A stretch of 64,000 bases of DNA from a virus: the IMG/VR virus record IMGVR_UViG_3300044568_004364. One strand, 5' to 3'. The position numbers and the translations under genes were made by a program. Positions 7,984 to 12,796 of this stretch are shown here, in pieces. Below the pieces are notes generated by a model. It had not been told where the DNA came from, made no database searches, and saw only the letters and a program-made list of their open reading frames with translations. The stretch's first letter is position 1; the number at the start of each line of letters is the position of its first letter.

Positions 7984-8073
7984 ATTTGTTTTTTGCCTTT
8001 CTCAGTGCTTAATTATAAGTTTGAAACATAATAAGAATTTTTTCAATCTACTTTTATTTATAAAAACAGGGTT

Positions 8074-9465
8074 TTACAAGCCTTTCCACTCGTTAATTGA
8101 TTCCATTTGCTCTCTATAATGAGCCATGCTAGGCGTAAGATCATTTTCATTATGAGAATTAATAATACCAAACGGCGGTAAGTCATCCTCCATCTCTCGT
8201 ATCTTTTCGCTATAGAGCAAGTCTTTAAGCTGTATATTACTCATGCCACCAAATGCGTCGGTGCTAACAAACCATGCAAACATAACAAGGTTCATTACGC
8301 TATCATCATGTGCAATGCCGCGTGCCGCATAACTATCTCCTTTTGGCTCAAAGCTGCTAAGTTCTGCAATTGTATTTGCATCGTATATCATTAACTTACC
8401 TTGCTCAATCAAGTCTTTTAGATTGCTGCAACCAATACGTTTAACTCGTTTGGTCATAGTGACACCAATGCCACTACTCTTTATACTGCTTTGCACAAAG
8501 ACGTTATCATATTCGTAATCATAATATATCGCATTACATACAACTTGTCCTGCATCGTTATTTTCAACAACCACAAGTGCATTACCGTATGACTTAGCAG
8601 CACGTATAATATATTCTGGGTACATTAACGGCGATACATTGTTATTACGATATGTACACACCTGCTTAAATGTTTCGCCAGAAATATCAAATACAGAAAA
8701 TGTACTATAGTCCTGCCCACGCCCTTTGCTTACATCTACCGTCAAGATATAGTCATGACCTTCAATAGGTTGCTCATAGTAGAGTATATCATATTGATTA
8801 CGTATCGGATCACGCGCTTGTAATCCAAGAAGCGCATCAGATGATATAAGTGTCTGCGAACTACCGATAAAAGAAACTTCAAACTCTTGCTTAAATTGTA
8901 ATTCACTGCTATTGGCAATAGTCTGACGCTTCCATGCTTCATCACGCCCAGGTACATCTTGCCATTTAATCGTGAATGGTTTAAATTCATTTGAACGTTG
9001 AATTGCACCTTCCCATAATTTATAGAACATATTGCCTACACCATTAGGTGTACTTGTAATAATAACCTTTGTATCTTTACCAGAACTAATTACAGGATAT
9101 GTACTCGTATAAAATTCATTTGCTTTATGCACAAACGCGAACTCATCAAGAAAGATACAATTATGACTGACTACACTGTTGGTATAATACGCATGTGTAT
9201 CTTCTACCTCTAATAAGTCATATACCTTTTCAGATTTAACATTTCTAATATCGATGATTTTAATATCACCAAATAATATATCCCCAACATTTAGAAATGA
9301 ACATGGTATGTAAGTAAATCCATCCTGACATAAAAATTCATGTTCAGGTGTACATTTAATATGTTCGCCATTATCAAATTGTACGAATAATAATTTTTCA
9401 GCTATCCCTTGGTCAAGTATAGCTTCAAATTTTTTAAATCCATTATGTGTTAAAACTTCAATCAT
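8074..9465 (-). CDS. gp17: Terminase large subunit, C-terminal part: 102-aa C-intein + Walker B and nuclease domains
   Basis: After ...YYTNSVVSHN the sequence resumes CIFLDEFAFV, TSTPNG, VDVSKGRGQDYS, HDDSVM. Confidence 0.95.
   Translation of the reverse strand: MIEVLTHNGFKKFEAILDQGIAEKLLFVQFDNGEHIKCTPEHEFLCQDGFTYIPCSFLNVGDILFGDIKIIDIRNVKSEKVYDLLEVEDTHAYYTNSVVSHNCIFLDEFAFVHKANEFYTSTYPVISSGKDTKVIITSTPNGVGNMFYKLWEGAIQRSNEFKPFTIKWQDVPGRDEAWKRQTIANSSELQFKQEFEVSFIGSSQTLISSDALLGLQARDPIRNQYDILYYEQPIEGHDYILTVDVSKGRGQDYSTFSVFDISGETFKQVCTYRNNNVSPLMYPEYIIRAAKSYGNALVVVENNDAGQVVCNAIYYDYEYDNVFVQSSIKSSGIGVTMTKRVKRIGCSNLKDLIEQGKLMIYDANTIAELSSFEPKGDSYAARGIAHDDSVMNLVMFAWFVSTDAFGGMSNIQLKDLLYSEKIREMEDDLPPFGIINSHNENDLTPSMAHYREQMESINEWKGL
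9160..9465 (-). mobile_element. C-terminal fragment of split intein 2
   Basis: Block B CTPEH, block F KVYDL, block G SHN followed by +1 Cys; own ATG overlaps the upstream stop (ATGA 9462-9465). Confidence 0.9.
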
Positions 9466-10403
9466 ATTTTAGTGCGATTAACCCATTTTTCAGGTTGTTC
9501 ACCTATATTAAAATAACCACGTTCAGATGTGTTTTCTGGATTAACATAATATTTTTTACCTTTATTTTTTGCAGATTTACCCTTTTTTGCCGATGACATT
9601 TTTAATTTACAATCATCGCTTCTTGTCATACCGCGATGTTTTTCTGCAGTCTTTTTAATTTTTTCAGGATTTTTATTAATCTTATCAACATGCTCTTTTG
9701 ATTTTTTAATACCCGTCAAACCAGCACTTATATTATTACAATGTTCTTTTGTTTTCTTTACTCCTTTTAATTTTTCTGATATGATTTTACCGGTTGCTTT
9801 TCTAGTGTCGGGTAATGAAGCAATCATTTGTATGCGTTTCATATAAACATTCACTGCCGCTTGTTGATCATCAGTATCAACAAATTTAATTGGCTTTTCA
9901 GAGTTACCGCAATCGCATATTAATTTAATTCTAGCAGCATAGTTATTTGTATCTTCATCATAACCTAATTTGTTTATTGCATCTTCCAGTGTTTCAAAAA
10001 TGCGGCCATCATCATGAATAATTTTTTTACCAGTCCCAGAATGTTTTCCAACTTTAGCTTCACGTAATTTTTCTTTTGTTTCTTTGGAGTGTGTCTTACC
10101 GTAAAAGCCATTATTTGGGCCGTGTAATACTAGTATGTTTCCGCCTTCCGAAAGATTATATGTATCTTCACGCAAGGTAAAATCTTTATTAACAATACGT
10201 CTTTCTTCATTTTCTGCATCAGCTTTATTATCAAAAACTGATAATATTTCTTTTTTAAAATTAGCGATGCCATACTTTTCTATAGCTCTTTTTATAAGTT
10301 TACCACTGCCCATATAGCCATCATTTAAATCATTAGTTGCATGATAGCCAACATAAATTTTATTGTTTATTAGATTTGTTATTTTATAGACAGTGTAATG
10401 CAT
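9462..10403 (-). mobile_element. GIY-YIG (Seg-like) homing endonuclease with NUMOD3-type repeats, in frame with N-intein 2
   Basis: MHYTVYKITNLINNKIYVGYH...YMGSG...FKKEIL...YNLSEGG; FYGKTHSKETKEKL; internal late promoter 10430-10437. Confidence 0.9.
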
Positions 10404-12341
10404 AATTTCTTTCTCGATGAATTTACTTTTATTTATAAAATCATCAATTTCAGCATAGTAAATATTATCATTTATGTTAACACAAATCTTAGCATCTCCA
10501 GTGACACAATTCATACTCAAGCCACGAATGCTGCTACCGCTTGTGGCTGCCGCAATAATTTCGCTGTTATTACTAAAGAGTATGTTACCTTTATTTAATA
10601 CCTTACACCCAGGCTGTAGGAAGAATGGTAAGTTTTCCAACATCAGCGTAATACGTGATAACATCTCACGTGCCGTTGCACCTTTGTTTGCAAGTATACC
10701 TATCTTTTTATTTGCGTTAAAGATTGCATAATGAAGGAGCCATGCGACACTTGTAATCGAATTGTGTGACAGAATATCGTTTGTGTAAAATCGGTGATCA
10801 GTAAAATCTACCCCAAGATCATACATCTCAACCTCTTTACCACATCTCTGAACTCCAACAACTTTGGAACACCCATCTTTTGTTTGTATAACAGATCCTT
10901 CTTTTAAATCTTTAACATAGACATTATCAAATTCTTCATTAAATAAAATATGGTTATCAGCACAGCGTAGATATTTCCCGCATTCTGTTTTTACCTCCCA
11001 GATGGTATATGGTATAGTTTTATGCGATTGTTTTAAAGGTTGAAATCCGCTATCAGTTTCAACCACGAAGCCGAAGCCCTCGAAGGATTCTATGAATTTT
11101 TTAGTTGATGGCAGTTGTCGAAATGCCACCTCGACATCGCTGATGGATCTCCGATCTTTCCGCAGTGCGGACACTGTGCCTTCTTTCTTTTTCTCGCCAT
11201 GCTTTTTATATTTTCTATATGTTCCTTCGTAAACTTCCTCCCTTTGAGACGTTCTGAAAGTTTGTTCTTTGTTTCCGCTGATGTTACCTTCCCCTTTCCA
11301 GCCTTTGAGAGTTTCTTCTTCGTTTCCTCGGATGTTACCCTTCCCGTGTTCGGTGATACATAATCCGGATCCGCGTGAAGTTTCCTCAGGCCTTTTGATA
11401 TATTTTCTTTGTGTTCCTCGGATTGAGCGTATCCACGTAATGACTCTGAATTTGTTTTCCGGTTTTTCATCCTCTCCCGAAACTTTGTCTCCCCCCAAAT
11501 AGATTTTATTTTCTTGGAGATATTCTTTTTGGATTCTTCCGAATGATTTTTGTTTAGCATGCCCCTTGGATGAACCTCGTGAGTTTTTCCATAAAAGGGA
11601 TTTTTCTCTCCACTGTTTTCCTCCGATAAAACATTTATGAAGTTGGTTCGAGCATTTTCGTATAAACGTGAGGATTTTATTTTTATGCCATCTCGTGTGT
11701 GCATCATCATGTGAAGGGCATAAACCATCTTCTTCCATTCTGGGCTGCACTTTGGAAACATCTTCACTAATAAAAGATGAGCGATAAAATGCTCTCTTAA
11801 AGTTAATGTCACTAGGTTCTCTTCTAAATTGTTTCCACCACACCCTTTTGGAAAAATATGATGCCTCTCCCCAGAGTTTAACAAACAGCGCTTGCGCTTC
11901 TCCATCAGGCAAAAATAGGTCTTTGAATACTTGTTCTTTAGGCAGGTCATGTTTATATTTATAAAACAATGACTTCTGAAGCGTACTTAATGCATAAAAT
12001 ATTTCGTGAACTAGTGATATTTTTGCTCGCAACGGAGGGCCATCAAGAAACTTGATGGTAATCTCTGTTTCCCCGACACTGCATTTCCCGCTTTGGCGAC
12101 ATGCAAGGATAATGGTAAAACGATTATCCGAAAAATGTTTTACCATTTTTTCTTGATAACCGCGCAGCTTAAATGGCACTAGTCCATGATCTAAGCTAAT
12201 AACCTTTACGTACTTTTCGGCAAAGTAACCTACATCAGCCATGCAGCGACGATATTCATTAACTTCATGCGCCGTGAAACTTTGCTGTACACCATCACGC
12301 TTGATATAAATGTTTCCATTATAGGAATCTGGTGTTGTCAT
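9462..12341 (-). CDS. gp17: Terminase large subunit, N-terminal part: extein + intein 1 + extein + N-intein 2 fused to GIY-YIG endonuclease
   Basis: T4 gp17 N-terminus (YNGN, LRGYQ, RQSGK Walker A); exteins join as RQSGK|SITSVAWLLHY and SSIRGLSMN|CIFLDEF; spliced product 86+84+361 = 531 aa. Confidence 0.93.
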   Translation of the reverse strand: MTTPDSYNGNIYIKRDGVQQSFTAHEVNEYRRCMADVGYFAEKYVKVISLDHGLVPFKLRGYQEKMVKHFSDNRFTIILACRQSGKCSVGETEITIKFLDGPPLRAKISLVHEIFYALSTLQKSLFYKYKHDLPKEQVFKDLFLPDGEAQALFVKLWGEASYFSKRVWWKQFRREPSDINFKRAFYRSSFISEDVSKVQPRMEEDGLCPSHDDAHTRWHKNKILTFIRKCSNQLHKCFIGGKQWREKSLLWKNSRGSSKGHAKQKSFGRIQKEYLQENKIYLGGDKVSGEDEKPENKFRVITWIRSIRGTQRKYIKRPEETSRGSGLCITEHGKGNIRGNEEETLKGWKGEGNISGNKEQTFRTSQREEVYEGTYRKYKKHGEKKKEGTVSALRKDRRSISDVEVAFRQLPSTKKFIESFEGFGFVVETDSGFQPLKQSHKTIPYTIWEVKTECGKYLRCADNHILFNEEFDNVYVKDLKEGSVIQTKDGCSKVVGVQRCGKEVEMYDLGVDFTDHRFYTNDILSHNSITSVAWLLHYAIFNANKKIGILANKGATAREMLSRITLMLENLPFFLQPGCKVLNKGNILFSNNSEIIAAATSGSSIRGLSMNCVTGDAKICVNINDNIYYAEIDDFINKSKFIEKEIMHYTVYKITNLINNKIYVGYHATNDLNDGYMGSGKLIKRAIEKYGIANFKKEILSVFDNKADAENEERRIVNKDFTLREDTYNLSEGGNILVLHGPNNGFYGKTHSKETKEKLREAKVGKHSGTGKKIIHDDGRIFETLEDAINKLGYDEDTNNYAARIKLICDCGNSEKPIKFVDTDDQQAAVNVYMKRIQMIASLPDTRKATGKIISEKLKGVKKTKEHCNNISAGLTGIKKSKEHVDKINKNPEKIKKTAEKHRGMTRSDDCKLKMSSAKKGKSAKNKGKKYYVNPENTSERGYFNIGEQPEKWVNRTKI
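10404..10508 (-). mobile_element. Short (35-aa) N-terminal fragment of split intein 2
   Basis: Block A CVTGDAKICV...AEIDDF inserted just before the Walker B motif. Confidence 0.85.
10430..10437 (-). promoter_or_regulatory. Late promoter inside N-intein 2 for the GIY-YIG gene
   Basis: Exact TATAAATA 26 nt upstream of ATG at 10403. Confidence 0.7.
11090..11950 (-). CDS. HNH homing endonuclease (Mob-like) with NUMOD3-type repeats and C-terminal Zn ribbon, nested out of frame in intein 1
   Basis: ERHHIFPKGCGGNNLEENLVTLTLREHFIAHLLL; NPFYGKTH; HSEESKKNIS repeats; CPHCGK...RWHFDNC; late promoter 11956-11963. Confidence 0.9.
   Translation of the reverse strand: MTCLKNKYSKTYFCLMEKRKRCLLNSGERHHIFPKGCGGNNLEENLVTLTLREHFIAHLLLVKMFPKCSPEWKKMVYALHMMMHTRDGIKIKSSRLYENARTNFINVLSEENSGEKNPFYGKTHEVHPRGMLNKNHSEESKKNISKKIKSIWGETKFRERMKNRKTNSESLRGYAQSEEHKENISKGLRKLHADPDYVSPNTGRVTSEETKKKLSKAGKGKVTSAETKNKLSERLKGRKFTKEHIENIKSMARKRKKAQCPHCGKIGDPSAMSRWHFDNCHQLKNS
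11956..11963 (-). promoter_or_regulatory. Late promoter inside intein 1 for the HNH gene
   Basis: Exact TATAAATA 5 nt upstream of the HNH ATG. Confidence 0.75.
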
Positions 12342-12796
12342 TATATTTCAACTGTTTCAGTTGGAGCGCTCTGTAGCAGCTTTTGTAACTCTGAAGTAGT
12401 GCCGACAAATATTGCATTATTTGTAGTGCCGCCACCACCAGAATTGTTTGGCTTCTGCTGTGTTTCATCTTGTATAATTTTCTTACGCTCTTTCTGTAGC
12501 GTTAGGAGCTGACCGTTAATTTCAGCTGCAGTTTTAATCATACCGGCCAAGACTTCAAATGCGCGCGGATGTTCTGCATCACTTGCTAGTGCATGCATTG
12601 TACCAATTGCCTCATCACTTGTATCAATAAGTTTCTTTATGTGCGCTCTTGCGTATGCATAGTCTTCTTCAGCATCAATTACTATTTCAGCGTGTGATGG
12701 TGCAGGATCCTTACCAGATTCAATAACCATTTCCTTTTTTACTGGAGCTAGGTTTGATTGGAGCGATGCTAATATACTATCTTTATCCTTTTTCAT
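12341..12796 (-). CDS. gp16: Terminase small subunit
   Basis: DYAYAR, EHPRAFEV, NNAIFVGTTSELQKLL; upstream of gp17 with TAATG coupling; start placed at MKKDKD (uncertain). Confidence 0.9.
   Translation of the reverse strand: MKKDKDSILASLQSNLAPVKKEMVIESGKDPAPSHAEIVIDAEEDYAYARAHIKKLIDTSDEAIGTMHALASDAEHPRAFEVLAGMIKTAAEINGQLLTLQKERKKIIQDETQQKPNNSGGGGTTNNAIFVGTTSELQKLLQSAPTETVEI

Follow-up and report, generated by a model that had tools for sequence, protein, structure and literature searches.

Analysis of a 64,000-nucleotide (nt) stretch of viral DNA, IMG/VR virus record IMGVR_UViG_3300044568_004364 (the whole stretch is hereafter called the window), revealed a homing-endonuclease gene (HEG) that is overprinted, out of frame, on a contiguous intein of the large terminase gene. 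The window belongs to a T4-like phage, and its gp17-like terminase (TerL) gene contains in the Walker A motif an intein of 441 amino acids (aa), which we term intein 1. The reading frame of this intein passes without a stop codon through a complete gene for an HNH/NUMOD3 endonuclease, which is read in the +1 frame of the same strand. Sequence comparisons indicate that the overlap is real and that the intein frame is kept stop-free by selection. Considering these comparisons together with structure prediction, we think it probable that intein 1 is a contiguous, cis-splicing intein, in which the region shared with the endonuclease gene serves merely as an open spacer, and that the endonuclease is translated separately. 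The elements concerned are as follows:

10761 to 12083, minus strand: intein 1 (441 aa), which begins at Cys1, ends in His-Asn and is followed by Ser+1; HINT fold in the AlphaFold2 model.
11952 to 12083, minus strand: N piece of intein 1, about 44 aa, with the strands of block A/N1, from alignment and a predicted local distance difference test score (pLDDT) of 82-96 over residues 1-40.
11103 to 11951, minus strand: spacer of intein 1, about 283 codons, a stop-free alternative reading of the HNH gene; no Pfam or PHROG match.
10761 to 11102, minus strand: C piece of intein 1, from K-K-F-I-E to the terminal His-Asn, with blocks B, F and G, from alignments and a pLDDT of 90-98.
11090 to 11950, minus strand: gene for a 286-aa homing endonuclease of the HNH/NUMOD3 type, read +1 relative to the intein; PHROG 655 'homing endonuclease' (E-value 2e-43) and Pfam NUMOD3 (E-value 6e-14).
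11956 to 11963, minus strand: TATAAATA, the consensus of T4 late promoters, located within the last codons of the N piece and ending 5 nt before the HNH ATG.

Intein 1 extends from Cys87 (position 12083) to Asn527 (position 10761) of a 959-aa open reading frame (ORF). These boundaries are exact, because 73 intein-less alleles read RQSGK followed directly by S(I/V)TS across the insertion site. The expected splicing residues are in place: the N-terminal nucleophile, Cys87, comes directly after RQSGK, block B reads C-A-D-N-H-I-L-F with its invariant His, and the intein ends in ILSHN, followed by Ser. The HNH ORF starts 1 nt past an intein codon boundary and lies between blocks A and B, after about 44 intein residues, in the loop that follows the first two strands, rather than in the canonical slot between blocks B and F. 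This loop is the 'atypical split site' of inteins. At the other end of the overlap, the first four codons of the C piece are shared with the last codons of the HNH gene. A previous sequence-only reading of this DNA had placed a 441-aa intein in the Walker A motif, from the Cys at 12083 to the SHN at 10761, and within it a 286-aa HNH gene (11090-11950) in another frame of the same strand, with a sequence box of its own 5 nt upstream and a stop-free intein frame over about 287 codons. All of these assignments hold, the box being TATAAATA and the number of stops zero, and the alignment to homologous inteins that it had proposed as a means of mapping the insertion places the HNH gene in the loop after block A.

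The openness of the intein frame exceeds what chance would provide. Over the 287 codons of overlap with the HNH gene, the intein frame contains no stops and the third frame contains 25. A stop in the intein frame requires an HNH codon ending in T to precede a codon beginning with AA, AG or GA. Counting these pairs, as the sequence-only reading had suggested, showed that none of the 107 HNH codons that precede AA, AG or GA ends in T, compared with 60 of the 179 codons elsewhere in the gene (Fisher P = 9e-15). Permutation of the synonymous codons of the HNH gene gave a mean of 15.1 stops, with a minimum of 4 in 20,000 trials, and the analytic probability of zero stops is 3e-9; if the codon usage of the window is applied instead, 31.3 stops are expected and this probability falls to 4e-19. 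The earlier estimate of 1e-6 for a chance origin was therefore conservative. Other long genes in the window have 0.04-0.18 stops per codon in the equivalent frame. The amino acid sequence of the HNH protein forces no stops in the observed frame but four in the other (at Met-Thr, at Met-Met twice and at Met-Lys), so that synonymous changes by themselves can remove every stop only when the layout is +1. From the structure of the genetic code, we infer that this preference for +1 would apply generally.

That the open frame reflects chance, base composition or an assembly artefact is scarcely credible. The HNH gene is indeed purine-rich, with T in 21% of third positions against 38% in the window, as an explanation by composition would have it, but the probability of zero stops is 3e-9 even under the gene's own codon usage, the same pattern is found in at least five diverged lineages, and the DNA is identical across independent assemblies. 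The terminase gene has the same sequence in assemblies of two independent runs (L241 and L242), and a further contig, L004, which is 99% identical (3 nt differences), spans the N junction of intein 1. The assembly is thus sound, which excludes the error at the junctions that the sequence-only reading had raised as a concern. In addition, a seven-residue variant of the whole 959-aa ORF (P0021) is present in a third run, and the window protein is also recorded on a 171-kb contig.

A profile of the intein 1 C piece recovered at least 495 loci in IMG/VR, and allele states were scored for the best 80 of these. About 65 of the best 80 are truly split, with their own Met 1-12 residues before the conserved K-(K/R)-F-I-E. 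Contiguous mini-inteins that have no endonuclease gene were also found, either 153-154 aa (L239 and L232) or approximately 195 aa (L199 and L172) in length, as were contiguous inteins across which a further ORF runs in the +1 frame. In L003 (identical to L001 and L206) this further ORF encodes an HNH protein 47% identical to that of the window, and in L171 a member of the same HNH family (299 codons). The 340-codon ORF of L182 has weak matches to NUMOD3 and DUF559, those of L205/L204 and L209 encode a ROS/MucR zinc finger with a DUF559 (Vsr-like) domain, and L189 retains a 100-codon HNH remnant across which the frame is still open. The intein frame has no stops in any of these six further loci, compared with approximately 14-16 expected for the full-length overprinted ORFs and 6-7 for the short ORFs of L209 and L189. 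For the full-length ORFs the probability of zero stops ranges from 6e-10 to 8e-8, and the third frame of the overprinted relatives contains 10-30 stops. The overprinted layout therefore recurs in at least five diverged lineages, with three endonuclease types and without exception in the +1 frame.

When the same aligned bases of the window, L003 and L171 are translated in each frame, the HNH products are 44-47% identical and the intein-frame products 21-22%, suggesting that the HNH frame, which is twice as conserved, is under selection at the protein level. The four intein-nested HNH proteins form a single group in a maximum-likelihood tree (support 84/94), with path lengths among them of approximately 1.5-2.2 changes per site, consistent with one origin and with an open frame that has persisted over a long divergence. 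The intein frame also stays open when the endonuclease gene is lost. L202 corresponds to L205 minus 690 nt, a multiple of three, inside the Vsr-like gene (L202 3267-3842 compared with L205 2580-3842), and the deletion leaves a 192-aa contiguous intein with a 50-codon mini-ORF; the remnant in L189 is a second example. The L189 intein (498-2846) has the C-terminal motif S-K-N rather than S-H-N and has therefore lost the penultimate His, so that it may be in decay or may splice without this residue.

Endonuclease genes outside contiguous inteins provide controls. Among 43 free-standing HNH homologues, the frame equivalent to that of the intein contains 7-47 stops, and HEGs that match those of L205 and L182 but occur in split alleles of the intein 1 family, for the most part in the same relative frame, contain 13-79. 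Contiguous alleles have exactly zero and no intermediate values occur, which implies that freedom from stops tracks the continuity of the intein and not the family of the endonuclease. Both sets of controls carry stops, so that an intrinsic absence of stops from this frame in these endonuclease families was rejected as an explanation. The claim of the sequence-only reading that selection has kept the frame open is thus borne out at the sequence level: the frame remains open in relatives with HNH proteins 44-47% identical and after deletions within the gene, and is not open in free-standing and split-allele genes.

Since about 65 of the best 80 relatives are split at this very site, and the second intein of the same terminase gene (intein 2, described below) is split too, the family is clearly able to trans-splice. 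Intein 1 could accordingly act as a split intein, its C piece being started independently, for instance at a GTG (at about 11129 or about 11065), and its frame being kept open for a different purpose, perhaps the avoidance of polarity or mRNA decay. We regard this as unlikely. Intein 1 lies in a single ORF and, in contrast to its split relatives, has no in-frame ATG before K-K-F-I-E. The first GTG (about 11129) lacks a suitably spaced Shine-Dalgarno sequence, and the second (about 11063-11065), which the sequence-only reading had named as a start that would make this a split intein, does not sustain that alternative, because it lies beyond the FIESFE strand, the first strand of the C piece, which is conserved, confidently modelled and included in all split relatives. 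Moreover, the 13-79 stops of the split alleles show that a split intein does not need an open frame. In most of the split alleles (L161-L240), the C-piece ORF begins 5-22 nt before the end of the endonuclease gene, which has the same +1 relative frame as its overprinted counterparts.

It is also conceivable, though very improbable, that the segment drops out before translation or in the course of it, whether through a self-splicing intron, through ribosome bypassing or through two programmed frameshifts, paired so that the HNH is read in frame. T4-like phages do have group I introns with endonuclease genes, and ribosome bypassing occurs in T4 gene 60. However, an Rfam scan of positions 8000 to 12600 gave no match at E-values up to 1, including to group I and group II introns, and the HNH frame stops inside the conserved start of the C piece. 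Furthermore, none of these routes requires an open intein frame, yet the frame is open in every lineage; paired frameshifts with the HNH as an in-frame domain were rejected on this ground. The explanations that invoke initiation at the C piece, an inactive HNH gene (considered below), or RNA splicing or bypassing share this weakness, in that they fail to explain why the open frame is confined to contiguous alleles.

AlphaFold2 modelling of intein 1, using an alignment of 24 contiguous and split relatives, supports a contiguous intein with a spacer. The N piece of about 40 aa and the C piece of 112 aa are predicted to form one HINT domain, with a pLDDT of 82-96 for residues 1-40 and 90-98 for residues 330-441; residues 100-323 score below 50, and most of the spacer is predicted to be disordered. 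Compared with solved inteins, the model (residues 1 to 441) gives Z-scores of 15-17.7, the best match being the VidaL intein (6vgw; Z 17.7, root-mean-square deviation 1.5 Å over 136 residues), and the atypically split Cat intein matches model residues 326 to 441 at Z 10.1. In sequence, the closest PDB matches of the C piece are the gp41-1 intein (E-value 2e-5) and CatC (E-value 4e-3). The intein-frame translation of the HNH bases matches no Pfam or PHROG family.

The overprinted gene itself resembles homing-endonuclease genes in sequence. Its product is 31-34% identical to annotated homing endonucleases of T4-like phages (tblastn) and, in an alignment with 16 homologues, retains 11 of 11 family-invariant residues, including the paired His and two later His (H30, H31, H54 and H58). 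A model of the HNH protein (pLDDT about 90) has strands at residues 28-31 and 46-49 and a helix at residues 51-64. The Pfam HNH models score below threshold for the window protein and match its relatives only weakly (L171, 0.003; L003, 0.0097). With respect to expression, the minus (coding) strand of the window contains TATAAATA 22 times and the plus strand once, a bias expected of working T4-type late promoters. In the relatives, the box lies 33 nt from the HNH ATG in L003, where it is followed by GGAG, and 9 nt from it in L171, so that the box and ATG are conserved in three lineages. By analogy with the geometry of T4 late promoters, the HNH mRNA of the window would start at or beside the AUG.

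We therefore propose the following model, in which translation of the spacer, cis splicing, and the production and activity of the HNH protein are predicted from sequence. Intein 1 would be a contiguous, cis-splicing member of a large phage family inserted in the TerL Walker A motif. The HNH protein would be translated separately from its own ATG, probably on a late transcript starting at or near that ATG, and would drive homing. Ribosomes translating TerL would read through the HNH gene in the intein frame, producing a spacer of about 285 aa that would be mostly disordered and free to drift as long as no stops arise. The N and C pieces would then fold into one HINT domain, and excision of the 441-aa intein would join RQSGK to SITS. 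The remainder of TerL would be completed through trans-splicing of the split intein 2.

Several observations weigh against this model. The HNH ATG of the window is not preceded by a Shine-Dalgarno sequence and, as the promoter box is only 5 nt upstream, leaderless or near-leaderless initiation would be required. Foldseek searches with the HNH model returned HNH domains as best matches, but with E-values of 0.6 and none significant, and VIA-align gave a best Z-score of 5.9, to unrelated helical proteins. Intein residues 61-90 (about 11812-11901, minus strand), which overlap the HNH catalytic core and are similar in the window, L003, L171 and L189, are predicted to form two helices (pLDDT 80-92), so that the spacer may not be pure junk; the helices may be genuine structure, or may arise only because the alignment is shallow and the HNH sequence conserved. 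Known intein endonuclease domains are located between blocks B and F, and intein 1 would have to splice across a disordered 285-aa insert at the loop used here. Finally, the model leaves the first rise of the stop-free state unexplained, as an invading gene with approximately 15-30 stops in that frame would have had to leave the frame open. With this caveat, the core of the scenario offered by the sequence-only reading is supported and fits the evidence best: a free-standing type of HEG lies out of frame inside a contiguous intein, whose frame selection keeps open so that TerL production can continue.

Some of these points would fit an inactive HNH gene, an untranslated relic within an intein in which only the splicing domain and a long tolerated spacer matter. 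The lack of a Shine-Dalgarno sequence, the structure searches that found no HNH fold and the gene remnants in L189 and L202 are all in keeping with this idea, which we nevertheless judge improbable. The HNH frame is intact over 286 codons and shows twice the conservation of the intein frame. Its product retains all 11 residues that do not vary in the family, among them those of the His-His...His...His motif, and both promoter box and ATG persist in three lineages. Our preferred interpretation thus remains a contiguous intein with a separately translated endonuclease.

The terminase gene as a whole lies on the minus strand and comprises two ORFs coupled by an ATGA overlap. The first encodes, in order, the N-extein, intein 1, the middle extein and the N piece of intein 2 fused to a GIY-YIG nuclease, after which it stops. 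The remaining elements of the gene are as follows:

9462 to 12341, minus strand: first terminase ORF, 959 aa, with matches to Terminase_6N, NUMOD3 and GIY-YIG.
12084 to 12341, minus strand: TerL N-extein, residues 1-86, ending in the Walker A sequence RQSGK; in intein-less alleles RQSGK is followed by SITSV.
10509 to 10760, minus strand: middle extein, 84 aa, the interval from Walker A to Walker B.
9462 to 10508, minus strand: N piece of intein 2 (35 aa) in frame with a 313-aa GIY-YIG/NUMOD3 nuclease, then a stop; the layout is common to L081 and L082.
8074 to 9465, minus strand: second terminase ORF, the C piece of intein 2 plus the C-extein, from the ATGA coupling and a CatC match.
9160 to 9465, minus strand: C piece of intein 2, 102 aa; CatC (6dsl_B) match with an E-value of 4e-10.

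The C-extein begins with CIFLDE (Walker B), which places intein 2 before Walker B; at this junction the 73 intein-less alleles read GLSMN followed by (V/C)IFLDE. Intein 2 is atypically split, having separate N and C polypeptides, a stop downstream of its short N piece and a start codon of its own for the C piece. A megablast search of the whole gene against GenBank phages gave no match, and the nearest TerL is 56% identical.

A nearer relative of the window phage is represented by L081 (843-3927), in which the exteins are 69-89% identical to those of the window. Intein 1 of L081 is truly split into an N-piece ORF, an endonuclease ORF and a C-piece ORF starting MLSNITERKFIE, and the product of the middle ORF matches the L205 Vsr-like endonuclease over residues 1-159 of the latter only. 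As this endonuclease differs from that of the window, the endonuclease at a single intein site has been exchanged between relatives. Two database proteins, P0004 and P0007, have C pieces of the intein 1 family at the head of SbcC/gp46-like ATPase ORFs, indicating that the family is also found in the P-loop of another phage ATPase. Among the HNH/NUMOD3 matches were also two diverged copies of a different terminase-like protein with the P-loop GGIGVGKT (L038, 1838-5320, and L049, 2392-5901), in which an intein is inserted before Walker B (after LDE, from Cys to VVHN, then Thr). Here the canonical slot is occupied, out of frame, by a gene (328-341 codons) whose product combines NUMOD3 repeats with a tail resembling restriction endonucleases, and the host frame has no stops in either copy.

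Two aspects of these findings are new. One is the position of the HNH gene in the loop after block A, which makes the atypical split site a second site for endonuclease genes in the intein fold. The other is that contiguous, overprinted, decaying and atypically split alleles all belong to one intein family, with two of these states together in the window's terminase gene. Because all these allele states exist in one family, the origin of naturally split inteins becomes directly testable. We tentatively suggest, as a possibility that falls somewhat short of even, that overprinting provides a regular and long-lived home for HEGs after block A in the Walker A family and also a link between contiguous mini-inteins and the atypically split inteins that protein engineers use, the overprinted inteins being the precursors of natural inteins of the latter kind. 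If this is true, +1 would be the sole frame allowed, as it is the sole frame clearable of stops by synonymous choice, and a single stop together with a new start would turn an overprinted intein into a split one. Natural contiguous relatives of inteins of the GOS/AceL-TerL type are of possible use in protein engineering. Since gene callers mark the long ORF only, overprinted endonuclease genes are routinely missed.

The overprinted layout itself is already known, through descriptions from 2025-2026, from a cyanobacterial DnaX intein and from actinobacteriophage inteins, a class that the literature calls rare and to which intein 1 adds a well-controlled case. The non-canonical inteins of actinobacteriophages, often in TerL, encode the endonuclease in a different frame (an endonuclease VII-like gene in frame 3) or antisense to the intein (LAGLIDADG or VSR-like genes), and their authors propose invasion of the intein by a free-standing HEG (10.1101/2025.01.02.630785). 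Intein 1 resembles them in its unstructured, stop-free middle and in the overlapping ORF for an endonuclease of free-standing type. It differs in that the actinophage genes are described as occupying the endonuclease region between the splicing blocks, whereas here the phage is T4-like and an HNH/NUMOD3 gene occupies, in the +1 frame, the loop that follows block A. The DnaX intein contains an out-of-frame LAGLIDADG ORF, and analysis of the ratio of non-synonymous to synonymous substitution rates (dN/dS) across 123 close sequences showed purifying selection on the endonuclease frame and a relaxed intein frame (10.64898/2026.09.14.751524); that study cites Gorbalenya 1998. Like intein 1, the DnaX intein is contiguous, with a disordered in-frame middle and the endonuclease in an overlapping ORF, but its host is bacterial, its endonuclease is of the LAGLIDADG type and the ORF lies between the N and C splicing domains. 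The evidence also differs, resting in our case on stop avoidance and frame-wise identity over deep divergence rather than on dN/dS.

Further parallels are found in inteins and endonucleases that lack this overprinted arrangement. The atypically split TerL inteins with a short N piece, described by Dassa et al. 2009 and in work on AceL-TerL and GOS-TerL (PMC2677866, PMC11766414), include GOS-TerL, AceL-TerL and the consensus Cat intein (PDB 6dsl) and have N pieces of 25-37 aa that contain only block N1. They share with intein 1 the host gene, the point of break or insertion, and an endonuclease gene between the halves that overlaps the start of the C piece; such 3' overlaps were reported by Dassa et al. 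2009, and the split alleles L161-L240 agree. Unlike them, intein 1 is unsplit and its match to CatC is weak (E 4e-3). In phage methylase genes, hidden out-of-frame HNH genes of the ShiLan type have been described, for which leaderless initiation was discussed (PMC11855218). There too the HNH lies in another frame and the host frame is stop-free across it, but no intein is involved and the extra peptide stays in the host protein, whereas the spacer of intein 1 would leave with the intein. The window HNH shares with the free-standing homing endonucleases of T4-like phages (PHROG 655) its family, a putative HNH motif, NUMOD3 repeats and T4-late-type promoter-like boxes; the free-standing members lie between genes and, in the frame kept open in intein 1, have 7-47 stops.

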